Part shown: piece by piece, positions 2,538 to 57,288 of the stretch | Layout of the letters: each line of letters starts with the position of its first letter | How positions within the stretch are numbered: the stretch's first letter is position 1 | Virus record (IMG/VR): IMGVR_UViG_3300021438_000002 | Direction: 5' to 3' (one strand) | DNA from: an uncultured virus (IMG/VR IMGVR_UViG_3300021438_000002) | Lineage: Duplodnaviria > Heunggongvirae > Uroviricota > Caudoviricetes | Length of the DNA stretch: 64,000 nucleotides | Notes under the pieces: model-generated | The model's input: the letters and a program-made list of their open reading frames with translations, nothing else | What the model was told of the DNA's origin: nothing | Database searches by the model: none | Translations under genes and position numbers: made by a program

Positions 2538-3173
2538 ATGGGTTTAAAAAGAGTAATTCCTGACGGAATGACACAAACTGCGTTCATTAAGCAAAGGGCA
2601 CAGGAAGTACCTGATTTTGATTGGAAAGAGCACGACAGATTAATTGGCAAGGCTGGTTCTACTCCATTGTTCATGTCTGCAAGAGAAATCCTAACCACTC
2701 ATAACCTTTTAGAAGACCAAGGGGTAAGATTTGGTACGCCTAATAGAAAAGACATTATTGAAAGAAAAACCGCAGAGAGTATTTACAATCCCGATAATGC
2801 TGTAGGTTCAGACCTTGGTAGCGGTAGAGCAGGTGGTTTAGCCGACAGCATCACTAAAAACGGCTATGACTGGAGTAGACCTATTCCACTAGCAGTTAAA
2901 GGTGTTGACCACTCTAATGACGCCCATACACAAATGCTGCAGAAAAAAATGACTCCTATGGTAGTTAATGGTCATCACAGATTGGCTTACATGTGGACAT
3001 TCCACCCAGATGAGCCTATGCCTGTCGACATTGCAAACTACAATCACATCTTCCTTCCAAAAGAAGACCATGTCATAAACGACGTGTACTTTGGGCATGA
3101 CACTCCAGAAGCGGCAATAGCCAGCCATAAAGAATACCTAGCAAGAGCAAGAAGACCAGATGACAGAGAATAG
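2538..3173 (+). CDS. ParB/sulfiredoxin N-terminal-like domain protein
   Basis: LADSITKNGYDWSRPIPL...VVNGHHRL...PMPV matches the ParB/Srx GxxR signature. Confidence 0.65.
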   Translation: MGLKRVIPDGMTQTAFIKQRAQEVPDFDWKEHDRLIGKAGSTPLFMSAREILTTHNLLEDQGVRFGTPNRKDIIERKTAESIYNPDNAVGSDLGSGRAGGLADSITKNGYDWSRPIPLAVKGVDHSNDAHTQMLQKKMTPMVVNGHHRLAYMWTFHPDEPMPVDIANYNHIFLPKEDHVINDVYFGHDTPEAAIASHKEYLARARRPDDRE

Positions 3174-3990
3174 ACCAAGACCATTACAGGTAACTGTCCA
3201 TGTGGCAGGTAGAGATGGCAAAATCAAAGGTACTCCGCTACCTATTGCTAATCCAGGACAGCATGAAGAGGCTGTTTTAATTAGTCAACGTGCAAAAGAA
3301 GTCCCTGACTTTGACCAAGCAGAGCACGACCGCATCTTCCAGAAGCGTATGGTTAATGGAGTTCCACACTGGACTGCTCCACACCAGATGACTGCTCGTG
3401 AGATACTTTCTACTCACCGTCTTGAAGGTGACGAGAGTGTGCCTCGAAGCGAGGTATACGAAGAAAAGATGAATGACCTTCAAGTACCTAAGTACCTCAA
3501 AAGCACAATGCGACCATACGACCTAGATTGGCACAATAGAGTTACAGCAGTCAACATGGACTCTACTTATGGTTCTGGCACTGGTGCTGGTATTGACGAC
3601 AACATTACTCATCATGGTTACGACTGGTCTAAACCAGTTCAACTTTCTACTTTAGGTGTTCATCCGTCTCAACTTTATGACATGTCTATTGCTGACCAAC
3701 CACGACTAGCAAATGGTGGTCACCGTGTAATGTGGATGTTTACCCACCACCCAGATGTGCCAATTCCTGTTGATACAGAGCCTCGTCGTTCAGGCATGGG
3801 TATTACACCAAGTCACCACATAACCAACATAAATGCCATGAGTGATGCGGCAAATAACGGTTTAAAGCCAGATGACGTTGCAAAGATGAAAGATGCTCAA
3901 GCACAAGAAGAGAGCGAAAGAGTTGAGAATTGGCGTGGTTCAATGGCAGCCGCATACCCTGAGAAGTACGGCTCCTTGCCAAAAGACTAA
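3160..3990 (+). CDS. ParB/sulfiredoxin N-terminal-like domain protein, paralog of 2538..3173
   Basis: IDDNITHHGYDWSKPVQL...LANGGHRV...PIPV; clear alignment to the upstream ORF. Confidence 0.6.
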   Translation: MTENRPRPLQVTVHVAGRDGKIKGTPLPIANPGQHEEAVLISQRAKEVPDFDQAEHDRIFQKRMVNGVPHWTAPHQMTAREILSTHRLEGDESVPRSEVYEEKMNDLQVPKYLKSTMRPYDLDWHNRVTAVNMDSTYGSGTGAGIDDNITHHGYDWSKPVQLSTLGVHPSQLYDMSIADQPRLANGGHRVMWMFTHHPDVPIPVDTEPRRSGMGITPSHHITNINAMSDAANNGLKPDDVAKMKDAQAQEESERVENWRGSMAAAYPEKYGSLPKD

Positions 3991-4010
3991 CTCAGCAGTA
4001 GCCTTAGAGC

Positions 4011-4520
4011 ATGATTACAGTCACGCTCACTGAAGCCGAAATTCGTCGTTGTACTTATCTAGCCGTTGAAAGATGGCTCCAGAAGATGGATAGTGAAGAC
4101 AAAGAGTCTTACGCTATCGGTCGGAAGAATAAGTACCTAGAGCATGACCTTGTTAATTCAGTTCGTGCGAACATCTCCGAGTGGGCAGTAGCCAGACATT
4201 ACGCCCTGTCATGGAATGGTGGATTTACTTATCCAAACAGTGAGCATGGTCGTCGTCGCTATCTGCCAGATGTGGGCACTAATCTTGAGGTTCGTACCCG
4301 TAGAACTGGTGGTGAGTTTGCTTTCTGGGAGTATGAGGTCAATAAAGAAGGCTACGCAGTATTTACCGAAGTAGTTGATGACGAGAACTTCAAAGAGGTC
4401 CGTATTGTGGGCTGGTTGCCCATTGAAGACTGTGGCAAGAAGGAATACTGGGATAGCGGTAATAAACGGTTCTATGTCCCTACAGAGGCTTTGAACAACC
4501 CAGAAAGTCTATTTGAATGA
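4011..4520 (+). CDS. hypothetical protein, possible PD-(D/E)XK-like fold
   Basis: SEWAVA...PDVGTNLEVRT motif; leaderless -10 box TAGCCT 6 nt before the ATG. Confidence 0.5.
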   Translation: MITVTLTEAEIRRCTYLAVERWLQKMDSEDKESYAIGRKNKYLEHDLVNSVRANISEWAVARHYALSWNGGFTYPNSEHGRRRYLPDVGTNLEVRTRRTGGEFAFWEYEVNKEGYAVFTEVVDDENFKEVRIVGWLPIEDCGKKEYWDSGNKRFYVPTEALNNPESLFE

Positions 4521-5074
4521 CCGCCATTAAACCTTTTGTCATGTACGAAACCAAAATCAAAGATTTTACCCTCAACCTAGAGGATGGGCGGTCTTTCTGG
4601 TTCCCAGAGACCCTATCTAATGGTCGTTCTAGTTACATCGCTTTTGAATGGCTTGTTCGGGAATTAGCCGAGTTGTACAAGGCTAAAACCACAAAGAATG
4701 ACCATGTAGATACTGTCGAACGTTTGTACGAACAAAAAGCCTATCTAGACCCATCCGTAGACCCTAAGAATACGCATGACCGTTTTGAGGTATGCCCATC
4801 ATCTGCCCAAGGTATGAATAACGTTGGTCCAACAATTAAAGCCCTACTAGACGATGGTGATTACCACACTGCCTATGAAATCTGTGTAGAGAGTGGTTAT
4901 GGGCTAAATGACTTCTATGTGTTTACCAATACTCGTCAATTTGACGTGTCTGTGCCATTCAGGTTTTTTATAGTTCCTACGGAGACCCTTCTGGAGCATC
5001 TAGACAAAGAAGACCCTAGATACATCTCCAGAAGCACCTTATTAAGCCTTATTACTGAAACTAAACAGATTTAG
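4517..5074 (+). CDS. hypothetical protein
   Basis: ORF track; ATGA overlap with the upstream gene. Confidence 0.6.
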   Translation: MTAIKPFVMYETKIKDFTLNLEDGRSFWFPETLSNGRSSYIAFEWLVRELAELYKAKTTKNDHVDTVERLYEQKAYLDPSVDPKNTHDRFEVCPSSAQGMNNVGPTIKALLDDGDYHTAYEICVESGYGLNDFYVFTNTRQFDVSVPFRFFIVPTETLLEHLDKEDPRYISRSTLLSLITETKQI

Positions 5075-5076
5075 TT

Positions 5077-5118
5077 TGTATAGACAACCTGTATAGACAT
5101 TGTTAAAATCTATACAGG
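5077..5118 (+). promoter_or_regulatory. sigma70-type promoter overlapped by an operator-like repeat, upstream of hsp20
   Basis: TAGACA(5081-86)-N17-TAAAAT(5104-09); TGTATAGACA direct repeat at 5077 and 5090; inverted repeat CCTGTATAGA-N11-TCTATACAGG at 5088-5118. Confidence 0.6.
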
Positions 5119-5205
5119 TACGCCAATTGGGTACCGTAAACAATAGTCTGCCTTATGGAGACTTTGCCAGATGGCAGACGCTTATCTACGTCTAAGGAGT
5201 AGAAA

Positions 5206-5727
5206 ATGCACATTAACGTACCAGAACCCTGGGACAAACATAAGCCCCCTTATCCATGGGGTCCAGACATCCACAAAGACAGTTACCAAAAGTGGCAGCA
5301 AGAAAAGCCAAAGGTACTCACTATTGCGGATTTATTCCCTCGCCTAGACCGCCTCTCCATAGGCTGGTCTCCACTTCTTGACCAACTCAAGGAGATTACC
5401 TCTACAAAGCCAACTTATCCTCCATACGACATTGTGTCGCTAAAGGATGACGTCAACCTGCTCAACGTGGCAGTAGCAGGCTTTACCAAGGATGAAATCA
5501 CTGTAACTGTCCAAGACTCTGTTTTGACCATCGAAGGTCGTCAGAATGATAAGCAGAAGGGTGAAGTTGTCTACCAGGGCATCGCAACCCGTGACTTCAA
5601 GTTATCTTTGGCAGTAGCCGAATACTGGGAAGTTACCAAGGCTAACCTTGAAAACGGTATGCTAACTATCCAGTTTAAGAAAGAACTGCCTGAAGAAAAG
5701 AAACCAAAAGTCATCGACATCAAGTAA
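5206..5727 (+). CDS. hsp20: small heat shock protein, Hsp20/IbpA family
   Basis: YPPYDIV...VAVAGFTKDEI...YQGIATRDF...ANLENGMLTI...PEEKKPKVIDI alpha-crystallin domain with C-terminal IxI; SD AAGGAG. Confidence 0.92.
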   Translation: MHINVPEPWDKHKPPYPWGPDIHKDSYQKWQQEKPKVLTIADLFPRLDRLSIGWSPLLDQLKEITSTKPTYPPYDIVSLKDDVNLLNVAVAGFTKDEITVTVQDSVLTIEGRQNDKQKGEVVYQGIATRDFKLSLAVAEYWEVTKANLENGMLTIQFKKELPEEKKPKVIDIK

Positions 5728-5745
5728 ACTAGTTACACCTCCCCT

Positions 5746-5982
5746 TTGCCTATGGCTTAGGGCACCAACCCTTTGGGGTTGCGTTTAAAACTGCTGCGGC
5801 TTGGCAACACGGACCGCAGGGTAAACGCCACCTAATGTTTCGTCATTAGGGAATGTTGCAGGACTGGTTAGCCCCTGGGCTAAAGTCAACTCTCGAAGTT
5901 GGTAGTGCAAATCTACACAGTCCACTGGTGTGTTTCGCCATCGCAAGAAAACGTAGACCGCCCGCCAGAGCGTATCTGGCAC
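5746..5982 (+). ncRNA. putative structured non-coding RNA(s), including a tRNA-like element at 5861-5924
   Basis: Consecutive hairpins (CAACCC/GGGTTG, GCGTTTA/TAAACGC enclosing CTGCGG/CCGCAG, CCTAATG/CATTAGG) and a cloverleaf closed by GGACTG/CAGTCC; no credible ORF. Confidence 0.5.
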
Positions 5983-5984
5983 TA

Positions 5985-6055
5985 TGGTTCTAAGTGTTAC
6001 GGTAGCACGGCGGTCTCCAACACCGTTAGCCTAGGTTCGACTCCTAGAGAATCAG
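5985..6055 (+). tRNA. trnW: tRNA-Trp (CCA)
   Basis: Acceptor TGGTTCT/AGAATCA plus G73; D stem GTGT/GCAC; anticodon arm GCGGT-CTCCAAC-ACCGT; T arm CTAGG-TTCGACT-CCTAG; no encoded CCA tail. Confidence 0.88.
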
Positions 6056-6081
6056 CGACTATACTAACCATAAGGAGAACT

Positions 6082-6258
6082 ATGCCATCATTTACTTTTA
6101 TTTGTGATAACTGTGGGGTTACCCAAACAATCACTGCCCAATTAAACGAAGAAATAAAACCACCTCATTGTGGCGTATGTGACTTGGACATGCGTAAAAT
6201 GTTTAAAGTCGGTGCCGTAACTTTTAAAGGTGGGGGCTGGGGAGGCAGTAGCCAATGA
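6082..6258 (+). CDS. FmdB-family zinc-ribbon protein
   Basis: MPSFTFICDNC...CGVC...FKGGGW; SD AAGGAG before the ATG at 6082, so the track start at 5899 is spurious. Confidence 0.8.
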   Translation: MPSFTFICDNCGVTQTITAQLNEEIKPPHCGVCDLDMRKMFKVGAVTFKGGGWGGSSQ

Positions 6259-6590
6259 TTCCAAAAAAAATTACTATAGGCACCCAGACCTGGGCAGTAG
6301 TCGAACATACCTCTAAAGAAGATGGCATGCTCTATGAGGATAACTACGGGTATACCTTAGAACGCATGAACATGATTGTTCTAGACAAAGAAGCCTCTGA
6401 AAGCCGTAAGCGTCAGGTACTGATGCACGAGATTCTTCATGCCATCCGTTTCACTTTCTTTACTGGAAGTAAGATGGCTCCCAAGTTAAACTTTGAGGAT
6501 ACAGAGCACTATTTCATTGGAATGTATGAAGAAACCCTTCTGATGGTGCTAAAAGACAACCCAGACCTAGTTAATTATTTTTTGAATTAA
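6255..6590 (+). CDS. small HEXXH metallopeptidase-like protein
   Basis: QVLMHEILHAI motif. Confidence 0.6.
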   Translation: MIPKKITIGTQTWAVVEHTSKEDGMLYEDNYGYTLERMNMIVLDKEASESRKRQVLMHEILHAIRFTFFTGSKMAPKLNFEDTEHYFIGMYEETLLMVLKDNPDLVNYFLN

Positions 6591-6699
6591 CAGGTTTATC
6601 TACCCCAAAAACCATGTTAGGGTAGTACACATAACTTAATAGAGTGTCACTTCGACAATAAACGACCAAGTACTAACGCAAGGAAAGGTAGGTCGCTAA

Positions 6700-7227
6700 A
6701 TGAAAAAGTACGTAATAATAGCCAGCATACTTGTCACACTTGCTGGTTGTTCTGCATCTACGGCAACTGCTGTAGATAAGGACATACAAGTAACAAAGCA
6801 ACATCAAGTAAAGCCACTAGCCCTAGTTCAAACAGCAAAAGCACATCGCAATGCTGCTCGAATGAAGGAAGTGGTCAACTACCTAAAAACACGTGTAGGA
6901 AGAACTTCTTATGTGTTTTCAGGTGCCAGTCCTCGTGGATGGGACTGTTCAGGTCTAGTTAGATGGACTTATGAACGATTCGGTATTGAACTACCACATT
7001 CAGCAAATAAGCAAGGGCATCTAGGTAAACGGGTTCACAAACCTAAACTAGGTGACATTGTAGTGTTTGCTTACAATGGTTCTACTAATTTCTATCATGC
7101 CGCTATTTACATTGGCAATGGCAAAATAATTAACGCACACTATGGAGCCCACGCTACTATCATCCAACCTTTGACTGACTATGCAAATGGTCAAATAAGG
7201 TTTGTGAGAGTAATCCCGACTCTATAG
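6700..7227 (+). CDS. secreted/lipoprotein NlpC/P60 peptidoglycan hydrolase
   Basis: Signal peptide with LAGC lipobox; YVFSG...GWDCSGLV, GDIV, HAAIYIG, NAH catalytic motifs. Confidence 0.9.
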   Translation: MKKYVIIASILVTLAGCSASTATAVDKDIQVTKQHQVKPLALVQTAKAHRNAARMKEVVNYLKTRVGRTSYVFSGASPRGWDCSGLVRWTYERFGIELPHSANKQGHLGKRVHKPKLGDIVVFAYNGSTNFYHAAIYIGNGKIINAHYGAHATIIQPLTDYANGQIRFVRVIPTL

Positions 7228-7232
7228 GCAGT

Positions 7233-7268
7233 AGCCCCATCAGTTTAGGCTGGTGGGGCTTCTTCTTT
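7233..7268 (+). terminator. intrinsic terminator
   Basis: AGCCCCATCAG/CTGGTGGGGCT stem followed by TCTTCTTT. Confidence 0.7.
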
Positions 7269-7284
7269 ATGCCATACTGTTGGT

Positions 7285-7416
7285 ATGTGTATTGAATGTT
7301 GCAGTGAACAAATCCAAGGCTCGCTTACTAAGGCTGGAGCAGGGGCTATGAGCACCAAGTTTGAAGGTGCTGGAGAAAGCACCGTTGAGTATGGCGAGAA
7401 GAGCAGTGCCGAATAA
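7285..7416 (+). CDS. micro-protein MCIECCSEQ... (43 aa)
   Basis: Read by hand; leaderless CATACT-N6-ATG; TAATG coupling to the next ORF. Confidence 0.55.
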   Translation: MCIECCSEQIQGSLTKAGAGAMSTKFEGAGESTVEYGEKSSAE

Positions 7417-7532
7417 TGGCTCCATTAAGTCCACAGTTCCAACACTCCAGAGGTCTATACACAGAACCTAGATGGAGTTACGGTCAATACGTAGTTGGTC
7501 CAAACTCCGACTTGCCGAGAAGGGAAAAGTAA
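7416..7532 (+). CDS. micro-protein MAPLSPQF... (38 aa)
   Basis: Read by hand; TAATG overlaps at both ends. Confidence 0.5.
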   Translation: MAPLSPQFQHSRGLYTEPRWSYGQYVVGPNSDLPRREK

Positions 7533-7639
7533 TGCCAGGAATTCCTAGCGGAGAAGATGCCGCTCCAGTAGACCCAACTTTGTTCTCTTACATAACCTAT
7601 GAGGATAACGAAGAGGAAGATGAAGATGCAGGCGAGTGA
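7532..7639 (+). CDS. acidic micro-protein MPGIPSGEDAAP...EEEDEDAGE (35 aa)
   Basis: Read by hand; TAATG coupling. Confidence 0.5.
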   Translation: MPGIPSGEDAAPVDPTLFSYITYEDNEEEDEDAGE

Positions 7640-7910
7640 CCTACTTAGTCTCCAACTTCGTGAAGCAGCAATGCGACGCAGTAGCCGTGACATCCCAGAA
7701 CCTGGGTATTCAGGTACAGGCTATTGGTGGAGGAACTATCCTGCTTATGTTGGTGGCTTAGGAGATTACAACGCAGCCGCCTCATCTACTGGCGGTAATC
7801 TTGAAGCAATACAAGCAACATCAACTCTAGGCTCCGAGGCAGTAGCCAAGGACGCAGGTATTGATGATGTACCTACTGGACAATCAGTTGGTGGCACAGC
7901 AGCGTCCTAG
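7626..7910 (+). CDS. hypothetical protein (start likely ATG 7626)
   Basis: ORF track 7599..7910; start shifted because the upstream micro-ORF overlaps it. Confidence 0.5.
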   Translation: MQASDLLSLQLREAAMRRSSRDIPEPGYSGTGYWWRNYPAYVGGLGDYNAAASSTGGNLEAIQATSTLGSEAVAKDAGIDDVPTGQSVGGTAAS

Positions 7911-8017
7911 TTCACGGTGCTTTTTTACTGCTTAGGCAGTATCCTATTTTTTGTAAAACAATTCATTACCTCACTTGTTCACAATCTGTACTCTCCATTC
8001 AAGTTAGAGGAAAAGAA

Positions 8018-8281
8018 ATGAAACTTACTGGAAATGTCCTTCTTAGAATTTTGGCGACGTTTGTTGCGTCCGCTCTTGGTGTTATCGGTGCTGGTAGCCT
8101 CGGTGGGGTTGCTCCTGCTACTGCTGCTCTCGTTGGTGGTATTTTGGCTGTAGCCAAAGTAATTGAACGCCTATCCATTGCCTTCCTAGAAGATGGCAAA
8201 CTATCTAACGCTGAAATCAATGCTGCCTTCCAGCAGTCTGTTCAGTTGAAGAACGTCAAAGAAGAAGAGCCGAAGAAGTAA
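8018..8281 (+). CDS. small membrane protein, holin-like
   Basis: Two hydrophobic segments and a charged C-terminal tail. Confidence 0.55.
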   Translation: MKLTGNVLLRILATFVASALGVIGAGSLGGVAPATAALVGGILAVAKVIERLSIAFLEDGKLSNAEINAAFQQSVQLKNVKEEEPKK

Positions 8282-9744
8282 TGAAGGGTCTGCGTAAATT
8301 CGCAGCACTATTCGTTCCCCTCACAACGCTATTTCTTCTATTTGGCTTGTCCAGCCCTGCTATGGCTGACAGCACAACTGACTATAACCAAAAGGTTGCT
8401 GAAGCACAGGCAAAGGTACAAGACCTTCAGAATCAGTTAAACAATGCACAGGCTAACCTAGACAGTTGGACTAACTCGTCTAACTCTCAGGCTGACCTTA
8501 TTAACTCTGCCCAGACTGCCGCTACCGAAGCAAAAGACGCTTTAGAGGCTGCTGTGTCTGATTACAATAGTAAAAAGGCTGATTACGATGCAGCGTTTGC
8601 TGATGTTCAGGCTGCTGAAGCAGTAGTCGCTCAGGCAGTAGCCGCAGTAAATGCTGCTGCTGATGTTGTGGATTCTACTTATGATTCTTACGCAGTAGCC
8701 CAGCAAAACGCTGATAATGCTCAGGCAGTTATGAATCAGGCTAAAAATGACTATGACACCAAGTTAATCAACGCTGGTGGTCAAGGCAGTAGTGCAGGTT
8801 TGAAGGTAGATGTCTACACAGGTATCGGTCGTTATGGAAACCCTCCACAAAAGTCAGATACTGTTTACACCAAGTGTAAGACAACTACTGTAAGCAACAT
8901 TGACCTTAACTGGGGTGGCGGTGACATTCTAGGTTGTGGTTCTGATTACATCATGCTTCACTACAAGGGTTACATCACATACCCAACAACCACTAAAGTT
9001 TACTTCCAGGCTCCTGCTGATGACGGTTTCTACATGTCTATCAATGGAACTCAGGTAATTAACGACTGGTCACTAAAAGGTTGTGGAGCAAACTCCACAG
9101 GACTGTTCTCCTTTACGGGAGGTAAGTCATACGCTATTGACGCTTGGTTCTACGAATGGACTGGCGGTGCTTGTTCTAGCCTTTACTACAAACCTCTTAA
9201 TGGAGGTTCCTACGCAGTAGCCCCAGCGTCCTTCTTTACACAGGACGCAGTAGTCACCATGATTAAAGACCCAGCATTGCTTGCTGTATTAAACGCTAAG
9301 ACCGCTCTTTATGTTCAGGCAGTAGCCGCTGAAGAACAGGCAGGCGTGGTCTATGGAGATGCTTGTGATGTCTATGATGGAGCAAATGTCGCTTATGGAT
9401 ACGCTGGAACTTCATTGGCAAATAAACACGCTATTTTGGTTCCGCTAGAATCCGTTATGAGTAATGCTGAATCTAACTGGCAAAACAGAAGTGATGACAA
9501 AGTAGTTGCTGACGCTAACTTGCGTGACCTAAAGGCTGAATACAGTAGCACTTTTGCTGCCATTGAGTCTGCGGCACAGCAGGTAGATGACCTAGAAGCC
9601 AGAGTTGCTCAAGCAAAAGTGGACCTAGCAAACATTCCAAAACCTACTGCTGCGGATAAGCGTAAACCAAAGAAGAATAACCCAAAGTATTTTGCTGATG
9701 GTGCATACATTCCTAGACAAGTGTTCTTAATAAATTTAAAATAA
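8281..9744 (+). CDS. secreted coiled-coil protein with a central PA14 (lectin) domain; short frameshift isoform
   Basis: Signal peptide ending AMA; Ala/Gln heptads flank the PA14 motifs NIDLNWGGG, ADDG, INDW, FYEWTGG. Confidence 0.8.
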   Translation: MKGLRKFAALFVPLTTLFLLFGLSSPAMADSTTDYNQKVAEAQAKVQDLQNQLNNAQANLDSWTNSSNSQADLINSAQTAATEAKDALEAAVSDYNSKKADYDAAFADVQAAEAVVAQAVAAVNAAADVVDSTYDSYAVAQQNADNAQAVMNQAKNDYDTKLINAGGQGSSAGLKVDVYTGIGRYGNPPQKSDTVYTKCKTTTVSNIDLNWGGGDILGCGSDYIMLHYKGYITYPTTTKVYFQAPADDGFYMSINGTQVINDWSLKGCGANSTGLFSFTGGKSYAIDAWFYEWTGGACSSLYYKPLNGGSYAVAPASFFTQDAVVTMIKDPALLAVLNAKTALYVQAVAAEEQAGVVYGDACDVYDGANVAYGYAGTSLANKHAILVPLESVMSNAESNWQNRSDDKVVADANLRDLKAEYSSTFAAIESAAQQVDDLEARVAQAKVDLANIPKPTAADKRKPKKNNPKYFADGAYIPRQVFLINLK

Positions 9745-10010
9745 TACCCCCAAAGGAGTTTCACAACGATAATCCAGTTGCGGGAATTCCACTGTTGGGG
9801 GCAGCATTTCAAGGATTAGCAGACGCATTTAATGCTCTAGGTAACATTGGTGCAGATTTGCCACCCGCTGTGCGAGAAAAAGCACAAAAGGTAGTTATTT
9901 CCGCAATTATCGTTACACAAGTAGCAACACAGGCTGCAACTATGGCTGCTAGTAGTGCAGCAAGTGCGGCATCAAGTTCATCAGGCTCTAGCCGAAGGAA
10001 AGAAAAGTGA
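9741..10010 (+). CDS. -1 frame extension of the PA14 protein with a hydrophobic C-terminal segment
   Basis: Frame open from 9717 with no ATG before the hydrophobic tail; slippery sequence A AAT TTA AAA plus downstream stem-loop. Confidence 0.65.
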   Translation: MIPPKEFHNDNPVAGIPLLGAAFQGLADAFNALGNIGADLPPAVREKAQKVVISAIIVTQVATQAATMAASSAASAASSSSGSSRRKEK

Positions 10011-10171
10011 AGTTTCTAAACGATTTAATCGGACAAATCTGGACATTACTCGGTATGTTCGTAGCATGGATTGTACTAGAAGGCTCTGCTAAGGCAGTAG
10101 TCGGCTGGTGCATCATCGTGTCATTAGTTATCTGGATGGCTACGTTTCCACTGCGAAATAAAGATGAATAA
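10007..10171 (+). CDS. small two-TM membrane protein (54 aa)
   Basis: Read by hand: MKFLNDLIGQIWTLLGMFVAWIVLEG...WCIIVSLVIWMATFPLR; GTGA overlap. Confidence 0.65.
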   Translation: MKFLNDLIGQIWTLLGMFVAWIVLEGSAKAVVGWCIIVSLVIWMATFPLRNKDE

Positions 10172-10179
10172 GAGACAAT
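10154..10179 (+). promoter_or_regulatory. putative late promoter CGAAA-N12-AGAGACAAT
   Basis: Same spacing and motif recur at 17508 and 45437. Confidence 0.5.
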
Positions 10180-10205
10180 AGTAATAATCACCCGAAAGGA
10201 TTATC

Positions 10206-10646
10206 ATGCCAGAAGCAATTTACAAAGAACCATTCCCTAAAGCAAAGCGTGGCGATGGGTTCAAAAACATGGCTAGTTACCGTACACACCCACACCGTGG
10301 TGTTGACTGGTCAGTTCCGTCACACAGCCCAATTCATGCAATCACTGGTGGAACCATCATGGTTGAAAAGTGGACAGATGTTCTAGGTAACATCGTTATC
10401 CAATCAACCTATGACGGTCACTTCCTTCTATACGCACACCTAGCAAAGCCAAGCCCACTTAAGGTAGGCGACAAGGTAGTTGCTGGAGTTACCGTTATTG
10501 GTGAAGTAGGTGGCGGTAAGGACACGCCTAGCGGTACAGCCAGTACAGGCTCGCACCTCCACGTCACATACGGAACAGTTCAGGACCTAGTTTCTGCTGA
10601 TTTGAGCAAACTAAACGACTTGTTTGCAGTATTGGACAAGAAGTAA
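10206..10646 (+). CDS. M23 peptidase, probable endolysin
   Basis: HRGVD, YAHL and HLH zinc-binding motifs; flanked by membrane protein genes. Confidence 0.85.
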   Translation: MPEAIYKEPFPKAKRGDGFKNMASYRTHPHRGVDWSVPSHSPIHAITGGTIMVEKWTDVLGNIVIQSTYDGHFLLYAHLAKPSPLKVGDKVVAGVTVIGEVGGGKDTPSGTASTGSHLHVTYGTVQDLVSADLSKLNDLFAVLDKK

Positions 10647-10836
10647 CAAATTGATTGAGCGTCAACCCCTAGCACCAAACAATCGTCAAGGCAGTAGCCT
10701 TCAACGTGAGTTTCGTGTTTCAGGGGTTACGCATCAACCAGTCAAATCAAATGAAGCACCAAGCATTCGTACATGGGCTCGTCGTGGACGACCTACTGGC
10801 GAAGGCTTTGGTGGCGGAAACAGAGTAGGCAGATAA
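10624..10836 (+). CDS. small basic hypothetical protein
   Basis: ORF track; fills the gap between lysis-cassette genes. Confidence 0.45.
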   Translation: MQYWTRSNKLIERQPLAPNNRQGSSLQREFRVSGVTHQPVKSNEAPSIRTWARRGRPTGEGFGGGNRVGR

Positions 10837-10837
10837 C

Positions 10838-11182
10838 ATGGACCAAGTTGTTATTTACTGGGCTGCTGGCGTTATTACTGTCGGTACAGCATTGGGCATG
10901 TTATGGAGGCTCCTTAAGCCACTTTGCGATAGGCTCCATGTCGTTATGGACAACTGGGATGCTTTCATGAGAGATTGGTCAGGAGAACCCGCTGCTCCTG
11001 GTCGTTCAGCAGTTCCAGGTGTTATGGAGCGATTAAACCGTATTGACGGAGAATTAAAGCGTAATGGAGGTTCCTCCATGAAAGACGCCATCAATCGAAT
11101 TGAAAAGAAACTTACACAAATAGATGCTCGTCTTGAAGAAGGCAGTGAACGATTTGAAGTACTAGAGGAAAAGGTAAAGTAA
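10838..11182 (+). CDS. membrane-anchored DUF2746-like lysis-cassette protein
   Basis: N-terminal TM; PGVMERL...NGGSSMKDAINR motif typical of actinophage proteins. Confidence 0.65.
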   Translation: MDQVVIYWAAGVITVGTALGMLWRLLKPLCDRLHVVMDNWDAFMRDWSGEPAAPGRSAVPGVMERLNRIDGELKRNGGSSMKDAINRIEKKLTQIDARLEEGSERFEVLEEKVK

Positions 11183-12105
11183 TGCCTGAAGGCGGAATAC
11201 ACGCAGGTCCAGAACCAGGTCGGTTTTTAAAACCTGGAGAGTATAAATCCAAAGGAGCAGCAGGTAAAAGCGTAATTGCTAAAGCAACCGTTGGTCTTTC
11301 TAAGACAGTAACTCCAGGTAAAAAAGAAGCATCTGGTACAGCCACAGGCAGTAGTCCAGCACCTGCAGCAGCACCTGCGGCTAAACCAACTAGGGGTCGT
11401 AAACCAAAAGCAACCGCTGCTCCAGCAGCAGGTCCAAACCATCCAGGGGTTAGCACTGCTACAAATGGTACTGGCGAAGGTTCTTCAGAAGGTAAGCCAT
11501 TAGGTCGCTTTCAAGCCGCAGCATTGGGCAAGATTAACAACGTTATGGAGCATCCTTTTTTCAAGGCTGTTTCAGAAAAAGCAGCAAGCGATAGGCAAGC
11601 CGTTGCTGATGCTGAAGCAGCAAAAAAGCAAGAGGCAGCAGATGCTGAAGCATCCAAAAACCAGCAATGGTATGACCGCCAGAATCACGCCCACAAAAAC
11701 CTAACTGAAAGAATGAGCCTTCAGGCAAAGTTAGCAGAGGAAAAGGCTGCTGCTGCTCATGCTAGAAAACTAGAACTTCTTAATTCAAGACAACAAGCAG
11801 GTGCTAAACCCGTTGTTGCTCCAACTGCTGGTTCGTCTCCGTTCTCTCCAGGAAGCAAAGGAACTCTAGACTTAGGCACTATGACTGGTGGAACTGCTGC
11901 TGCACCTGCTGCGGCACCTGTTGCTGAACCTGCTGCAAAACCAGCCAGAGGTCGTAAACCAAAAGCCGCTGCCCCTGCAGAGACACCAGTAGAAACTCCT
12001 GCTACTCCTGCACCTGCAAATAAACCTGCAAGAGGTAAAGCCGCAGTTAAACCTGGAACACCAAGTACTGGTGGCATCATGAGTAAGTTTGATGCCAGTC
12101 GTTAA
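11182..12105 (+). CDS. Ala/Pro/Lys-rich protein with AT-hook-like RGRKPK repeats
   Basis: AAKPTRGRKPKA, AAKPARGRKPKA and KPARGK. Confidence 0.65.
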   Translation: MPEGGIHAGPEPGRFLKPGEYKSKGAAGKSVIAKATVGLSKTVTPGKKEASGTATGSSPAPAAAPAAKPTRGRKPKATAAPAAGPNHPGVSTATNGTGEGSSEGKPLGRFQAAALGKINNVMEHPFFKAVSEKAASDRQAVADAEAAKKQEAADAEASKNQQWYDRQNHAHKNLTERMSLQAKLAEEKAAAAHARKLELLNSRQQAGAKPVVAPTAGSSPFSPGSKGTLDLGTMTGGTAAAPAAAPVAEPAAKPARGRKPKAAAPAETPVETPATPAPANKPARGKAAVKPGTPSTGGIMSKFDASR

Positions 12106-12207
12106 AAACTATTTTTACTCTTTAGGCTTACAAATCAACGCAAATAAGGCAACCTTTTACTGTGACGAAAGTTACAACGTTTTAAACGGAGAGGTAGGTA
12201 TTAACTA

Positions 12208-12444
12208 GTGCCTATTATTCGTAAATTTGCCATTCAGGGGCATGCCGTCCCTAGTGGTCCAACTAGTCCTCGTGGACCGTTTCCTCCTGAAGTTCTGGCA
12301 CAGAACCCAAGAGCATACGAACCACAAGCAGCCGACTCCTTACACGTTGCACTAGATGATGTCCGCATGTTTCAATGTAAGATGTGCGGCGAAATCCTCT
12401 ACGAGGACGAACTCAACAATCATGATTGCGAAAGCGAGAAATAA
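12208..12444 (+). CDS. small protein with a C-terminal zinc finger
   Basis: CKMC...HDC; SD GGAGAGG upstream. Confidence 0.6.
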   Translation: MPIIRKFAIQGHAVPSGPTSPRGPFPPEVLAQNPRAYEPQAADSLHVALDDVRMFQCKMCGEILYEDELNNHDCESEK

Positions 12445-12447
12445 ATT

Positions 12448-14568
12448 ATGCCATCTAATAGCGGCAAACCCCTAGACAGTGCTGGAAACCTACAAGTAGA
12501 TTTCGTATGGGGTAACTTTGCTCCACAGCCAAACGATGTTCGCACAGTGGCATCGGACACTAACGTATCAACTTCAACAGCAACTGCTGCCGACCTTGTA
12601 GACGCCACCAAGAAGCGTATTGTTCCTTCTAAGGACAACCACGACAACATTCTTGCTGGTTGGAACGGGTACCCATCTTTCACTGGAAATGACTATGGAA
12701 GTTACAGCCGTGCCACAAACGGTACTGCAGTTACCAATACTCAGCAATACACCTATACTCCACAAGTAACCGTTCCAAAGGTTGATGGTCTAACCGACGT
12801 TAACGCTAAGGATGCTTTGCGTGACAATGGTTCTACTGGAACTATTACTGGTACTGTATTGGCTGCTGGTTCTTCTGCAGGTGGTCGTGTACAGATTATT
12901 GAAGCGGCACGTGCTGCTGGTGTTGCAGGTACAGTAACCCTTAAAGGTACAGCCCACGGCTTTACAACTGGTGACTATGTAGCCGTTTACGGTCTAACCA
13001 GCACAGTAGCCACACTAAATGGTGTCTACGGTCCGATTACTGCTTCTACTGACACATTTACCTTTGCTCACACCAACACCGTTTCTGGTGCAATTACTAA
13101 CGTAACAAGCATCACTGGTGCTTATGCTGTAGTAGTTTCTAAGAGCATTGCAACCACTGTTAGCGGTGCACTTGCTGCTGGTGTATTCTCGCTAGTCGCT
13201 GCATCAACAACACAGGTAACTGTTGGTATGACTGTGACTGGTACTGGTTTTGCTACTGGAACAACTGTTCAGTATCTAAACGGTACAACTGTTGGTCTAT
13301 CACTACCTACCACTGCTGCTATTGCTAACGGTGCTTCTGTAACATTTGCAAGCGTTCCTACTCAGGCAGTAGCCGCTAGAACTGTTGCTTACTCAGGTAC
13401 TGCAACTGCAGGTACTGCAACTGTAAACACTGTTGCTGCTCACGGTCTAAACGTAGGTGACTCAGTTAGCGTTATTGGTTCTACTGTCTTGGCTGCTACT
13501 ACTGGTATTGTTGCTTCTGCAGCAACTTCTTTGGTAGTTGCTGACGCAACCAACATTGCTGCTTCAGCAATTGTTACTGGTCCTGGTATTACACCTGGAA
13601 CTACCGTTAGCGGTTCTCCAACAGGTACTGCCGTTACTCTAAGCGGTAACAGCACTGCAGCCCTAGTTGCTCAGTCAGTAGTTACCACTGGTACTGCTAC
13701 TTCTGGTTCAACTACACTGACTATCCCAACAGGTACTGGTGTAAACGTTGCTACCAACACTGCTAATGGTCACCTAGTGACTGGTGTCGGTATCCCTGAC
13801 GGTACTTACGTATCATCTGGTGGTGGAACTACCTCAATCACTTTGAGCAAGGCTACTACTTTGGCTCTAAGCACTACCGCAGTAACCTTTAGCCTTGCTA
13901 AGTTTGCTTCAGGTACCGCAGGTTCAACCAGCCTAACTGTAGACAACAACACTGCTTTGGTTGTTGGTCAGACTGTTGTTGGTGCTGGTATCCTTGATGG
14001 AACTATCATCACTGCAATTAGCGGAACAACCGTTACCCTAAGTCAGGCTGCATTTGGTACCTTCTCAAGCAAGTTAGTTACTTTCAAGAACCTACTTACT
14101 TTTGGTACTGTTGCAACCTCTAAGTTGAACAACGCAGTTACCAGCAACATTGTAACTTCAGTTCTAGTTACTGCTGTTCCAAGCACTACTTCATTCCAGT
14201 ATGCTTTGACTGGTCTAACTAGTGCGGCTACATTTGCTGCTGCAAGCGACAACTATGTAGTCACCTCAGCAACTTCAACTGCTGCTGGTGTAACTCTAAA
14301 CGTTGCTTCTGGTACAGGTGTGGCTGGTATGGTTGGTGCAATCGTAACTGGTGCAGGTATCCCTGATGGTACATTCGTTACTGCTCGTTCAACCGATGCA
14401 TTGACACTAAGCAAGGCTCTAACTGCTGACCCAGGTGCTACACCACTAGTGTTCTACCCAGCATCAGTTGTTCCAGGTATTCGTACCAACACTGTCGTAA
14501 TTGGTAGCCAGAACGTTAGCGGAGCACAGGCGGGTTCAACAACAGTTACATACAACCTATACAACTAA
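12448..14568 (+). CDS. Thr/Gly/Ala-rich virion decoration or fibre protein; PASTA-like segment interrupted by beta-module repeats
   Basis: VTVPKVDGLTDVNAKDAL at the N-terminal side and VIGSQNV at the C terminus; five GxG[IF]xxGTx[VI]...LS repeats. Confidence 0.65.
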   Translation: MPSNSGKPLDSAGNLQVDFVWGNFAPQPNDVRTVASDTNVSTSTATAADLVDATKKRIVPSKDNHDNILAGWNGYPSFTGNDYGSYSRATNGTAVTNTQQYTYTPQVTVPKVDGLTDVNAKDALRDNGSTGTITGTVLAAGSSAGGRVQIIEAARAAGVAGTVTLKGTAHGFTTGDYVAVYGLTSTVATLNGVYGPITASTDTFTFAHTNTVSGAITNVTSITGAYAVVVSKSIATTVSGALAAGVFSLVAASTTQVTVGMTVTGTGFATGTTVQYLNGTTVGLSLPTTAAIANGASVTFASVPTQAVAARTVAYSGTATAGTATVNTVAAHGLNVGDSVSVIGSTVLAATTGIVASAATSLVVADATNIAASAIVTGPGITPGTTVSGSPTGTAVTLSGNSTAALVAQSVVTTGTATSGSTTLTIPTGTGVNVATNTANGHLVTGVGIPDGTYVSSGGGTTSITLSKATTLALSTTAVTFSLAKFASGTAGSTSLTVDNNTALVVGQTVVGAGILDGTIITAISGTTVTLSQAAFGTFSSKLVTFKNLLTFGTVATSKLNNAVTSNIVTSVLVTAVPSTTSFQYALTGLTSAATFAAASDNYVVTSATSTAAGVTLNVASGTGVAGMVGAIVTGAGIPDGTFVTARSTDALTLSKALTADPGATPLVFYPASVVPGIRTNTVVIGSQNVSGAQAGSTTVTYNLYN

Positions 14569-15755: not shown

Positions 15756-15915
15756 ACTAACTGTCTGGGCAGAGAACTCGCTTTACACTATCGGCAAAAA
15801 CATTGCTGGTATGCGTGGCGGTACGCCAGAAGCCTTGAAAGAAGCCGAGATTGGTGCAGAAGCATTACTCGCTATTATTCAAGAACTACTAAAAAGGTCC
15901 GAAAATGAGTTTTGA
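15679..15915 (+). CDS. hypothetical protein upstream of the terminase
   Basis: ORF track; overlaps the terL start. Confidence 0.5.
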   Translation: MKILKKAGRQPQTKLQKRVGGISSPELTVWAENSLYTIGKNIAGMRGGTPEALKEAEIGAEALLAIIQELLKRSENEF

Positions 15916-17488
15916 AGACGATAAGTTCGAGGAAATAAACCCCGAATACTATACGAGCGAGCCTGCTGATACTGAGTCTTTTGAAGCCGATGAGCAACTT
16001 GATGAGTTATCTCAAGACTTTGTAAACCGCCTTGTAGACAAGATGATGCAGTTTCTTGTCGTCCTTGTTGGACACGACCTCCATACGTATCAGAAACCTC
16101 TGGCACGGAGAATGATGGAGTCCGTCATTATTGGTGACGGTAAAGAGGTCACCGCTTTAGCATCTCGTCAGTCAGGTAAATCCGAAACTGTAGCGGACAC
16201 TGTAGCCACTCTAATGATTTTGTTACCTCGTCTAGCCAAACTATACCCAGACCTTCTAGGTCAGTTTAAAGACGGTATTTGGGTAGGTCTGTTTGCTCCT
16301 ACGGAAGGACAGGCAGAAACCCTGTTCAATAGAACAGTTACTCGTTTAACCTCAGAACGAGCCTTAGAAGTTCTAGGTGACTCAGAGATTGATGACGAAG
16401 CCAAACGTATTGGTGGAGTTACTCGCCAGATTCGACTTAAGAACTCTGGCTCCTCCATAACAATGATGACTGCTAACCCAAGAGCAAAGATTGAGTCTAA
16501 GTCGTTCCATCTTATTGTTATTGACGAGTGCCAAGAAGCAGACGATTTTGTGGTTGCCAAGTCAATCTCTCCGATGCTTGCGTACTACGCAGGTACCATG
16601 GTAAAGACTGGCACACCTACAACCAGCAAGAACAACTTCTATAAAGCCATTCAATTAAACAAACGTTTGCAAACTCAACGAGGCAATAGGCAAAACCATT
16701 TCCAGTGGGACTGGCGTGAGGTAGCCAAGGTAAACCCTAAATACCACAAGTTCATTAAGCAGGAGATGCTGCGTATTGGAGAGGATTCCGATGAGTTCCA
16801 GATGTCGTATAACTGTAAATGGCTACTTGAACGAGGCATGTTTGTCACGAGTTCCGCTTTGGATGCTTTGGGTGACACTTCTCAGGAACTCGTCAAATCG
16901 TGGCACAAAACGCCAGTGGTCGTTGGAATTGACCCTGCACGAAAAGTTGACTCCACTGTCGTTACAGTCGTATGGGTTGACTGGGATAGACCTGATGAAT
17001 TTGGCTATTTTGACCACAGAGTACTTAACTGGCTCGAATTACAGGGTGACGACTGGGAAGAACAGTACTTTCAAATAGTCAACTTCCTAAGTAACTACGA
17101 CGTACTCGCTATTGGAGTAGACGCCAATGGTGTTGGAGACGCCGTTGCTCAACGTCTAAAACTGCTTATGGGGCGTGCAGAAGTAGTAGCAGTTACATCT
17201 AGCCCTACAGAACAATCTAGGCGTTACAAGCATCTACAGGCTCTTATTCAACGTCAGGCTTTGACCTACCCAGCCCACGCCCATACTCGTAGACTGCGTA
17301 TCTGGAAGCGATTCTACCAGCAAATGACTGATGCGGAAATCCAGTATAAAGGTCCTAACTTTATGGTTGCGGCTCCAGATGAAACTTATGCTCACGACGA
17401 CTTTGTGGATTCTTTGGCGATTGCCTGTTCTCTAACTCAAGAACTTGTTATGCCAGAAATAGAAGTGAGTAGTGGGGCATTCTTCTAA
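15905..17488 (+). CDS. terL: terminase large subunit
   Basis: Walker A ASRQSGKS, Walker B LIVIDE, motif III TGTP, nuclease VGIDPA...HDDFVDS. Confidence 0.93.
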   Translation: MSFEDDKFEEINPEYYTSEPADTESFEADEQLDELSQDFVNRLVDKMMQFLVVLVGHDLHTYQKPLARRMMESVIIGDGKEVTALASRQSGKSETVADTVATLMILLPRLAKLYPDLLGQFKDGIWVGLFAPTEGQAETLFNRTVTRLTSERALEVLGDSEIDDEAKRIGGVTRQIRLKNSGSSITMMTANPRAKIESKSFHLIVIDECQEADDFVVAKSISPMLAYYAGTMVKTGTPTTSKNNFYKAIQLNKRLQTQRGNRQNHFQWDWREVAKVNPKYHKFIKQEMLRIGEDSDEFQMSYNCKWLLERGMFVTSSALDALGDTSQELVKSWHKTPVVVGIDPARKVDSTVVTVVWVDWDRPDEFGYFDHRVLNWLELQGDDWEEQYFQIVNFLSNYDVLAIGVDANGVGDAVAQRLKLLMGRAEVVAVTSSPTEQSRRYKHLQALIQRQALTYPAHAHTRRLRIWKRFYQQMTDAEIQYKGPNFMVAAPDETYAHDDFVDSLAIACSLTQELVMPEIEVSSGAFF

Positions 17489-27308: not shown

Positions 27309-27989
27309 ATGCCAAGAAAAACACAGATACAAGTACGTAGAGATACTGCTGCCGAATGGACTAGAGTCAACCCTATCTTGGCGTCAGGCGAATCTGGATT
27401 CGAGATGGACACAGGTCGTACCAAGATTGGTAACGGCACGTCTACATGGAGCCAGTTAGGTTATCAAAACCTGCCCTTCTATGGAGCCTTTGAAGACACA
27501 ACTACTCAGACTATTGCTGCCGTAGACGTAGCGTATCCGATGAAGTTAAACACTACGGATTACGCCAACGGAATCTCCATAGCCTCAGATGGAACCAACC
27601 CAACTAGGATAACTTTCTCCACTGCTGGCACCTATAACCTCCAATGGTCTGGACAGTTTGTTAACTTTGATACTGGAAAGATTCCGATTGACATAGCGGT
27701 TTGGCTTCGTAAAAACGGTACTGACATTGCAGGAAGCACTGGTCACATTACTGTTCCTGCTAGGTACCTTAAAGGTGCAACAAACATTGATGGTTCCACC
27801 ATTGCTGGCTGGAACTTCTTTGTCAGAGTTGCGGCTGGTGATTACATCCAAATCATGTGGCATGCCGATAGCACCAACTTAAAGATTGCAGGGGTAGATT
27901 ACTACCCAGCCTTGTCATACTCTGCAGGTGTAACGCCTGCTCTTCCAGGAACTGCCTCCGTAGTAGTGACTGTAAGCCACGTCGCTTAG
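27309..27989 (+). CDS. fibre protein with Mtd-N/hyaluronidase-N-like anchor
   Basis: IQVRRDTAAEW...NPILASGE.GFE.DT...KIGNG...WSQL; C1q/TNF-like tip. Confidence 0.7.
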   Translation: MPRKTQIQVRRDTAAEWTRVNPILASGESGFEMDTGRTKIGNGTSTWSQLGYQNLPFYGAFEDTTTQTIAAVDVAYPMKLNTTDYANGISIASDGTNPTRITFSTAGTYNLQWSGQFVNFDTGKIPIDIAVWLRKNGTDIAGSTGHITVPARYLKGATNIDGSTIAGWNFFVRVAAGDYIQIMWHADSTNLKIAGVDYYPALSYSAGVTPALPGTASVVVTVSHVA

Positions 27990-56006: not shown

Positions 56007-56014
56007 TAGATTTC

Positions 56015-56494: not shown

Positions 56495-56559
56495 GAGTCA
56501 ACCGACCTCATAACCAACCGAGACCGCAAGGCTCACTACCAAATAAGGAGATGGTCATT

Positions 56560-57213: not shown

Positions 57214-57224
57214 TCTCACTCACT

Positions 57225-57270
57225 AAAGAGGGCTAAGGTTTTACTTCCAATTCCGCCTTAGCCCTCTTTT
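57225..57270 (+). terminator. intrinsic terminator
   Basis: AAAGAGGGCTAAGG/CCTTAGCCCTCTTTT. Confidence 0.7.
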
Positions 57271-57288
57271 ACAATCTCTGAGGGAATA

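Follow-up and report, generated by a model that had tools for sequence, protein, structure and literature searches.

An oriented array of 18 nine-letter words upstream of the terminase gene in an uncultured virus

Layout of the locus and composition of the array

We analysed a stretch of 64,000 nucleotides from the uncultured virus IMGVR_UViG_3300021438_000002 (hereafter the window) and focused on an array of 18 co-oriented copies of the word GCAGTAGYC, which occupies positions 3995..13374 on the + strand. The array was delimited by a pattern search over both strands of the window and evaluated with shuffled sequences. It is preceded by two + strand genes whose products are ParB/sulfiredoxin-like paralogs of 211 amino acids (aa) (paralog 1, 2538..3173) and 276 aa (paralog 2, 3160..3990), 35% identical to each other, and the stop codon of the second gene lies 5 bases before the first copy of the word. 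On the far side, outside the array, the large terminase gene is found at 15905..17488 (+; PHROG 2, E 8e-34). The array itself spans an accessory and lysis-like module with Hsp20, a tRNA-Trp, a zinc-ribbon open reading frame (ORF), an M78-like peptidase, an NlpC/P60 lipoprotein, a PA14-domain protein (six copies), an M23 peptidase and several genes of unassigned family.

Family scans of the window recognised a large terminase, a portal, a major capsid, a tail sheath, tube and baseplate proteins, as well as a DnaB-like helicase, a primase, an SNF2 helicase and a DNA polymerase A. The large terminase protein (TerL) is 51% identical to that of Streptomyces phage BRock, and the closest named terminase and capsid are those of the Streptomyces phages BRock and LuckySocke (51-60% amino-acid identity); the phage collection contained no near-identical record to the window, and a search of IMG/VR did not return its final 50 bases. 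Window DNA is present in freshwater metagenome runs, and the protein encoded at 3160-3990 was also found on a contig of 97,882 bases. Because of the freshwater runs, the size of this contig, the family scans and the BRock/LuckySocke-like terminase and capsid, the source is, as judged from its sequence, a myovirus of about 98 kb that infects a freshwater actinobacterium. A first-pass annotation of the window had already assigned it to an actinophage, and this assignment agrees both with the kinship of the terminase and capsid and with the presence of the WhiB gene it had listed, which we found at 61684-62001. The MerR-like gene that it named also has a match, at 55979-56494, but a weak one (E 0.018, below the Pfam cut-off).

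The window contains 22 copies of GCAGTAGYC on its two strands. Eighteen of them (13 GCAGTAGCC and 5 GCAGTAGTC) are on the + strand of 3995-13374, where the - strand has none, whereas the other 54.6 kb of the window hold a single + copy (55152) and three - copies (29814, 46223 and 52280). All 18 positions and the four outlying ones recorded in the first-pass annotation were exact, and the near-misses it listed are true one-letter variants (5470 GCAGTAGCA, 7936 GCAGTATCC, 8786 GCAGTAGTG and 13003 ACAGTAGCC). The interval carries 1.9 copies per kb, compared to 0.018 per kb for the + strand outside it. In 100 dinucleotide shuffles of the window, the two strands together held 1.25 copies on average and at most 6, against the 22 observed; from base composition, a single strand of 9380 bases would be expected to carry 0.058 copies, in keeping with the earlier estimate of less than one copy for the interval. 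There is no copy in the 3.99 kb of the window preceding the array and none in the 2.5 kb between the last copy and the terminase gene. The interval holds 5 one-letter variants versus 18 exact copies, and since exact copies far outnumber variants, recognition appears to be highly specific. The letters preceding the word tend towards an extended form, AGGCAGTAGYC (A at -2 in 14/18 and G at -1 in 12/18 copies), while those following it are not conserved (+1, A4 C4 G8 T2; +2, A6 C7 G2 T3). A literature search for the word itself returned primer lists only.

With regard to the individual copies, copy 1 (GCAGTAGCC, 3995..4003) is intergenic, placed in a 20-base spacer 7 bases before the ATG of 4011-4520, and copy 2 (GCAGTAGCC, 4185..4193) is read in phase 0 (Ala-Val-Ala) within that gene. 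Copy 3 (GCAGTAGCC, 5611..5619) is in phase 0 of the Hsp20 gene (5206-5727). Copy 4 (GCAGTAGCC, 6245..6253) lies at the end of the small zinc-ribbon ORF (6082-6258), where it is read in phase 1 (Gly-Ser-Ser); a single base separates it from the ATG of the M78-like peptidase gene (6255-6590), which carries copy 5 (GCAGTAGTC, 6294..6302) in phase 0. Copy 6 (GCAGTAGCC, 7228..7236) is intergenic; its first base directly follows the stop codon of 6700-7227, and it extends into the 5' arm of a terminator-like hairpin inside the array (7233..7260, +; 12 pairs and a T-rich tail). Copies 7 (GCAGTAGCC, 7678..7686; phase 1, Arg-Ser-Ser) and 8 (GCAGTAGCC, 7839..7847; phase 0) both fall in 7599-7910. The PA14-domain gene (8281-9744) contains copies 9 (GCAGTAGTC, 8620..8628), 10 (GCAGTAGCC, 8635..8643), 11 (GCAGTAGCC, 8692..8700), 12 (GCAGTAGCC, 9214..9222), 13 (GCAGTAGTC, 9247..9255) and 14 (GCAGTAGCC, 9319..9327), all in phase 0. 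Copy 15 (GCAGTAGTC, 10094..10102) is in phase 0 of a small membrane-like ORF (10007-10171). Copy 16 (GCAGTAGCC, 10691..10699) is in phase 1 of ORF 10624-10836; it is possibly intergenic, since that ORF looks doubtful, and would then fall between the M23 peptidase gene and 10838-11182. Copy 17 (GCAGTAGTC, 11348..11356) is in phase 1 (Gly-Ser-Ser) of 11182-12105, and the final copy, 18 (GCAGTAGCC, 13366..13374), is in phase 0 of a gene for a 706-aa protein (12448-14568).

Some neighbours of the copies deserve mention in their own right. Residues 1-18 of the NlpC/P60 peptidase (6700-7227) match LPAM_1, a lipoprotein signal that is unusual in a phage lysin; the M23 peptidase is encoded at 10206-10646, and a 71-aa ORF (9795-10010) comes after the PA14 gene. 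The tRNA-Trp (5985-6056) has just upstream a non-coding stretch of 252 bases (5731-5982) that is specific to the window: it has no Rfam match, and 8 bases stand in its place in the metagenome runs X2-X4 and in the related loci L002/L139.

Codon usage and conservation of the word

No long ORF of the window is on the - strand, and all 18 array copies accordingly lie on the coding (non-template) strand, which makes this a weak test of orientation, every window gene being +. Twelve copies are read in phase 0 as GCA-GTA-GYC (Ala-Val-Ala/Val) and four in the next phase as x-Ser-Ser (6245, 7678, 10691 and 11348), while those at 3995 and 7228 are intergenic; the third reading phase of the word would include a TAG stop. 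This placement reproduces what the first-pass annotation had described.

Two kinds of codon control were run on the 17 genes of the interval with 500 shuffles each, one of them (synonymous) keeping the proteins and the codon usage of each gene. Synonymous-codon shuffles gave a mean of 3.49 copies (maximum 7) and codon-order shuffles a mean of 3.09 (maximum 5). It should be noted that three copies (3995, 6245 and 7228) are outside the shuffled codons and hence counted in every shuffle; the shuffled coding part thus gives about 0.1-0.5 copies, compared to the 15 observed. The enrichment therefore persists under the codon-preserving shuffle that had been proposed as its check. Moreover, Ala-Val-Ala/Val tripeptides are spelled with the word in 12/16 cases in the interval (2710 codons) but in 1/16 cases in the remaining 17209 codons. 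Peptide and spelling are both enriched, which indicates selection on the DNA. Codon usage does not explain the array.

Other sequence effects were considered as well. Analogous polar k-mers in relatives (GCAGAAGCA, GCAACAG, GCAGCAG, CAGAAGAAG and CTACTGCA) were used as negative controls; they are codon or repeat effects, because each occurs in a single phase and most lie within one Ala-rich gene. ACCCAGA (15/0 in L145, 12/0 in L143 and 16/3 in the window) was rejected as an array of the same kind, being spread genome-wide and reading as Pro-Asp/Glu codons. A role of the word as promoter or ribosome site was also discarded, as its distance to start codons is not constant. Sigma-70-like sites were not enriched (18 found versus 24 expected), and an RNA family search returned the tRNA as its sole match.

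Conservation was examined in relatives drawn from IMG/VR and JGI metagenomes. In L002, 93.1% identical over 9480 aligned bases, 18/18 copies are intact where 9.4 are expected neutrally (p about 9e-6), and in L143, with local identity of 70-93%, 6/6 aligned window copies are intact against 1.8 expected (p about 5e-5). Conservation of the copies, likewise named beforehand as decisive, was thus observed at both synonymous and non-synonymous positions. The bias in strand is complete in all array-bearing contigs (+/- counts of 19/0 in L139, 9/0 in L143, 5/0 in L142, 3/0 in L144, 5/0 in L145 and 10/0 in G002). In L139, a relative of 71.8 kb, the 19 copies were found within the 20 kb read, with none in the 5.5 kb before the first, and L143 has no copy in the 9.6 kb preceding its paralog genes.

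The intergenic copy at 3995 reads GCAGTAGTC in L143 and L144 although its flanks diverge. Copy 2 (4185) is intact in L002, L143 and L144 and reads GCAGTGGCC in L145; copy 3 (5611) is intact in L143 and reads GCAGTTGCC in L145; copies 5 (6294), 7 and 8 are intact in both L143 and L145, as is copy 10 in L145; and copy 4 (6245) has a homologous copy in G002 at 22425. Of the 8 window copies that could be mapped in the more distant L145, 4 are intact, and synonymous changes of GTA to GTG or GTT have destroyed two. L139 and L002 carry an extra copy at window position 7773 that is shared by L143, so the window has lost this copy. Four outgroups read ACTATTGTA at 6294 where the window has GCAGTAGTC, which implies that this copy arose via amino-acid-changing substitutions, and comparison with outgroups indicates that several copies arose in this way.

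The wider family has kept the order of the genes that precede the terminase, and yet 80 terminase-anchored loci of relatives have 0-3 copies each, and three complete related genomes (93-96 kb) have 7, 5 and 2 scattered copies and no array. Since the copies are conserved in array-bearing relatives while the wider family is without the array, the alignments mark it as a lineage-specific signal kept by selection. Taken together, these results clearly demonstrate that the array is a real, selected, strand-specific and lineage-specific signal. The core proposal of the first-pass annotation, a directional recognition array overprinted on genes, is thereby supported by both the codon-preserving shuffles and the conservation in relatives.

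G002 has two of its copies in a divergent non-coding region of 580 bases and none in a minus-strand gene block of 11.7 kb. This region (G002, also L133, 12594-13174), located between the divergent gene blocks, also contains several ATAGCC-CTAGAA-like repeats and could be an origin, a promoter region or a genome terminus of G002.

Elsewhere in the window, a recombination module (56467-62867) encodes an SSB-like protein, DNA polymerase A, RecA (60106-61152), a Holliday-junction resolvase (61377-61691), WhiB and a Cas4-like exonuclease (62001-62867). A virion structural protein of 1097 aa (23997-27290) matches structural proteins of the marine cyanomyoviruses S-PM2, S-RSM4, Syn1 and S-RIM44 with 42-44% identity along about 90% of its length, so that this structural gene is shared across host phyla. 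Two neighbouring proteins (27309-27989 and 28043-29047) start with an Mtd_N domain, the N-terminus of the major tropism determinant of phages with diversity-generating retroelements; no reverse transcriptase was seen in the family scans of the window.

The adjacent paralogs as candidate readers of the word

The two proteins encoded before the array share the motifs ITxxGYDWxxP and NG(G/H)HR. The first-pass annotation had called them ParB-like, and this description is consistent with their G-x-H-R signature, which matches the G-x-x-R nucleotide-binding motif of the ParB superfamily, and with weak matches to the ParB/sulfiredoxin fold. A profile of the family found 49 relatives among 1.84 billion representatives. 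H188 and R189 are invariant in 35 relatives and G186 is nearly so. A second model of paralog 2, built on 35 sequences, reached a pLDDT of 82; with this better model, 9/10 top Foldseek rows were ParB, KorB, PadC or Osa (E 0.7-2), and VIA-align gave Z values of 3.2-4.0 to ParB, KorB, sulfiredoxin, Osa and PadC over residues 70-210. The first model had already placed the ParB/sulfiredoxin fold in 8/13 top VIA rows, the top seven including sulfiredoxin, pNOB8 ParB-N, a serine kinase, PadC, Osa and KorB. In a wide VIA search with the better model, the rows were filled by the C-terminal helical hairpin and were uninformative on the core. Language-model look-alikes comprised clusters of the ParB catalytic effector (ParB-CE), Osa-type and ParB_N, which share few features and serve as a lead only. 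From these models, a ParB/sulfiredoxin-fold domain followed by a helical hairpin is probable but unproven for paralog 2.

The family occurs in 1-3 tandem copies in all five lineages with a visible left array edge (the window, L002/L139/L142, L143, L144 and L145). It is absent from three complete and two near-complete array-less relatives in a profile search at E <= 0.01 that recovered 3/3 positive controls. In a lineage 93% identical to the window (runs X2-X4 and L139), paralog 1 is lost through a deletion of 2553-3153. Just upstream of the ParB-like paralogs are two further large tandem paralogs of 576 aa and 544 aa (window 506-2236 and L139 17482-19116, minus strand of the stored locus; about 31% identical, no family match), which are also found in L143 and L145.

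The explanation that we tentatively prefer, with clearly less than even confidence, is that the array consists of oriented sites for a phage protein, with the adjacent ParB/sulfiredoxin-like paralogs as candidates, and acts on a machine that tracks along DNA, probably RNA polymerase. Selection would have placed 18 oriented sites, all recognised by a single sequence-specific factor, in coding as well as non-coding DNA. The likeliest reader would be phage-encoded, the candidates being the ParB/sulfiredoxin-fold paralogs, whose genes stop 5 bases short of copy 1, so that the reader would be made beside its own sites and bind or load there in one orientation. A nucleoprotein domain might thereby be built over the accessory and lysis module of about 9.4 kb between the reader gene and the packaging genes, and this domain would control a machine that tracks the DNA in one direction. 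Host RNA polymerase is the most probable such machine, because each copy is on the non-template strand of co-directional genes. We infer both the binding of the word by the paralogs and the identity of the polymerase as the tracked machine. Analogues of such control may be the L5-type stoperators or long-range control by the ParB-family clamp KorB. A parS-like or stoperator-like function, two of the options raised at the outset, gains support from the adjacency to the ParB-like genes and the co-occurrence with them.

Several observations weigh against this explanation. With all window genes on the + strand, co-orientation with transcription is indistinguishable from any other co-orientation, and 15 or 16 of the 18 copies are within ORFs, unlike the mostly intergenic stoperators. 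The ParB-family sites known to us are palindromic, none being polar. As for the proteins, the paralogs have no Pfam or PHROGs match, none of 47 remote relatives scanned contains a ParB-type Pfam family, and a search with P0010 gave no match. Against PDB sequences, the single row returned by a 9-sequence profile, an RNA polymerase beta' chain, was not significant (E 0.85), and a 35-sequence profile returned none. No single fold match is significant (Foldseek E >= 0.4, Z < 5), and a helix-turn-helix is not evident in the model of paralog 2. The co-occurrence of paralogs and array amounts to about one independent event, because all paralog lineages form one clade. G002 (10 copies, 26 kb) and L036 (4 copies, 9 kb) have no paralog in the sequenced span. 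Finally, the paralogs in L145 are only 31-39% identical, yet its word is unchanged, and its first copy is 2.8 kb downstream.

Other explanations and known systems

We regard a directional system of an undescribed kind, with the array as its cis-acting half, as unlikely. A non-canonical ParB/sulfiredoxin-fold family outside Pfam would here read an asymmetric word resembling the ops element of RfaH, possibly on single-stranded or melted DNA, and would from these sites direct an enzyme that tracks along an entire gene module of a lytic phage. If true, this would give the ParB superfamily its first set of polar, non-palindromic sites and would mean that Actinobacteria use an ops-like code independently of RfaH.

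Similarly unlikely, in our judgement, is a Chi-like role, in which the word would attenuate or redirect a helicase-nuclease that enters from a free DNA end on the right-hand side of the array. The enzyme could be the host's, of the AdnAB or RecBCD type, or the phage's Cas4-like exonuclease with a helicase, and the outcome would be that DNA is protected and RecA-dependent recombination or replication started, as in the lambdoid phage LLS. The geometry speaks for it, as top-strand copies to the left of a rightward-transcribed terminase gene are also seen in LLS and MD8. According to the available text of PMC12315714, LLS has 20 of its 23 Chi sites on the top strand, in a cluster at the end of the genome that precedes the terminase genes, the sites of MD8 are distributed 32 to 0 by strand, and in both phages the clustered sites face the end left open by terminase cutting. 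A benefit that adds up per site would account for the many accumulated copies, the phage encodes SSB, RecA, a Holliday-junction resolvase and a Cas4-like exonuclease, and array-less relatives could use other hosts or strategies.

The word is, however, not frequent in candidate hosts. Host sampling started from a RecA-based search that led to a freshwater Rhodoluna-labelled assembly, and took in 401 genomes from the class as well as 301 from across the phylum; 10 and 11 of the sampled genomes are flagged as unpublished, and the absence of enrichment rests partly on them. None of the 401 Actinomycetia genomes was enriched for the word, the maximum being about 100 copies in 2.4 Mb compared to 160 for the reversed-word control, and about 31 genomes of 1.2-1.7 Mb had 5-38 copies, similar to that control. 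For the 10-mer form, none of 301 genomes across the phylum was enriched (maximum 23; best small genome 19 in 1.8 Mb). Known Chi sequences occur once per few kb; the densest sampled genome had at most one copy per 24 kb, and the true host is perhaps outside the sample. The lack of enrichment in 701 actinobacterial genomes thus weakens the view that the word is a host Chi. Furthermore, the word of 9-11 letters is longer than any Chi known to us (5-8 letters), the last 2.5 kb before the terminase gene are without a copy, and LuckySocke has a terminal repeat of 344 bases with its left end 25 kb upstream of the terminase gene. As regards LuckySocke itself (OR725497.1; L001/L134), its first and last 344 bases are identical and form a short direct terminal repeat; the feature tables of both end stretches list no repeat feature. 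A 7.5 kb contig in the assembly of an uncultured Rhodoluna sp. (L131) encodes a RecA 59% identical to that of the phage; it is possibly of phage origin despite its place in this bin, and might point to the host group.

We consider it unlikely that the word is itself an ops-like signal, that is, a hairpin on the non-template strand (G-G-C / A-G-T-A / G-C-C) read by an elongation factor at RNA polymerase, with processive transcription across the module, internal terminator included, as the effect. PMC5995543, in the part available, gives ops12 and the crystallised ops9 for RfaH, and GCAGTAGTC has 8/9 letters in common with the ops9 that was co-crystallised with RfaH. With the preceding G, present in 12/18 copies, the word matches 7/8 specified ops letters, including C3, G5, T6, A7 and G8, each of which on mutation reduces or abolishes RfaH recruitment (PMC5995543, same part). 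Set against the ops core GGCGGTAG on the non-template strand, the match is again 7/8 with the mismatch at G4, and G4C is among the changes described there as abolishing recruitment. The potential C3:G8 pair is kept, the same mini-hairpin is possible, and the sole variable letter (C or T) is opposite G, so that a G-C or a G-T pair could form. In addition, every copy is on the non-template strand and a terminator-like hairpin lies within the array. Covariation is lacking, since C9 is invariant whichever letter occupies -1, and we estimate the chance of a 7-of-8 match, allowing for the motifs compared, at roughly a few percent. Known ops elements are usually single and located in 5' leaders; here there are 18 copies, mostly inside ORFs. 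The ops/RfaH system also differs in needing T11-G12 and a NusG paralog (PMC5995543, as far as available). Downstream of the word, the array shows no conservation of the T11-G12 pause letters. No NusG family match was obtained among the proteins of the 64 kb window, out of a genome of about 98 kb, at E <= 1, nor was PF02357 found in the three complete and two near-complete relatives, where a control matched 10 of 14 genomes. The Chi-like and the ops-like explanations, which were not among the functions proposed in the first-pass annotation, were both tested and neither is established.

That a phage nuclease, possibly the ParB/Osa-like paralogs, cuts one strand at the word appears very unlikely. 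The word is indeed strictly one-stranded and highly sequence-specific, and the weak look-alikes of the paralogs include clusters of the ParB catalytic effector and of Osa, which is a DNase. Localised single-strand interruptions are a feature of T5 and phiKMV-like phages, with all nicks on one strand. Those nicks are few and spread along the genome, unlike 18 sites in 9.4 kb, and the selective benefit of a dense local cluster of nicks is not obvious.

Least probable of all is that the sites load or orient the terminase, in the manner in which KOPS words orient FtsK, or pace DNA entry: the array does lie upstream of the terminase gene on the same strand, and family search of the window recognised no small terminase subunit, but known pac/cos recognition elements extend over tens to hundreds of bases and not 9.4 kb, the 2.5 kb beside the terminase gene are empty of copies, close relatives with an about 80% identical terminase have no array, and contig depth is flat. 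This depth, 35-40 over 3.5-20 kb in the probable source run, also means that the interval is not a collapsed long terminal repeat of the T5 or BRock style.

Polar, dispersed short words are rare, and Chi, KOPS, stoperators and ops have each revealed a directional machine that reads DNA. Here, freshwater actinophages of an abundant, uncultured group keep a selected word even though it costs them amino-acid changes, and the word lies beside an uncharacterised ParB/sulfiredoxin-like family. The identity of its reader could yield the first recombination-hotspot-like word for the host bacterial group, extend stoperator-type control of elongation beyond temperate mycobacteriophages, or define a new activity of the ParB superfamily.

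Among known systems, ParB-parS and KorB-OB resemble the locus in that a putative ParB/sulfiredoxin-fold gene directly precedes the presumed sites. Chromosomal parS clusters and the KorB sites on plasmid RK2 likewise comprise several sites over kilobases, inside genes. The sites of these systems are, however, palindromes bound by dimers through a helix-turn-helix, whereas those described here are non-palindromic and all on one strand; no ParA-type family was found among the proteins of the 64 kb window by family scans. The lambdoid phages LLS and MD8 resemble the window in that they carry 20-32 copies of one short word, nearly all on the top strand, in a cluster that precedes the terminase genes on the circular map (PMC12315714, available text). 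Their word is the host Chi, and growth of LLS is RecBCD-dependent (PMC12315714, same text), in contrast to a longer word that is not frequent in the 701 sampled genomes and a phage with its own recombination genes. The L5-type stoperators of cluster A mycobacteriophages are, in the part of PMC9283540 available, more than 20 asymmetric 13-mers that follow the direction of transcription and lose function when reversed. They are distributed genome-wide, mostly in short intergenic gaps, and are read by the two-domain helix-turn-helix immunity repressor of a temperate phage (PMC9283540, same part), whereas the word described here has 9-11 letters, occupies 9.4 kb of about 98 kb with 2-3 of its 18 copies intergenic, and occurs in a window of 64 kb in which no repressor or lysogeny genes were identified, the weak MerR-like match at 55979-56494 and the ParB-like paralogs being no more than candidates for a repressor. 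With the stoperators it nevertheless has in common an actinophage setting and asymmetric sites that are dispersed rather than tandem and all oriented with transcription (PMC9283540, same part).

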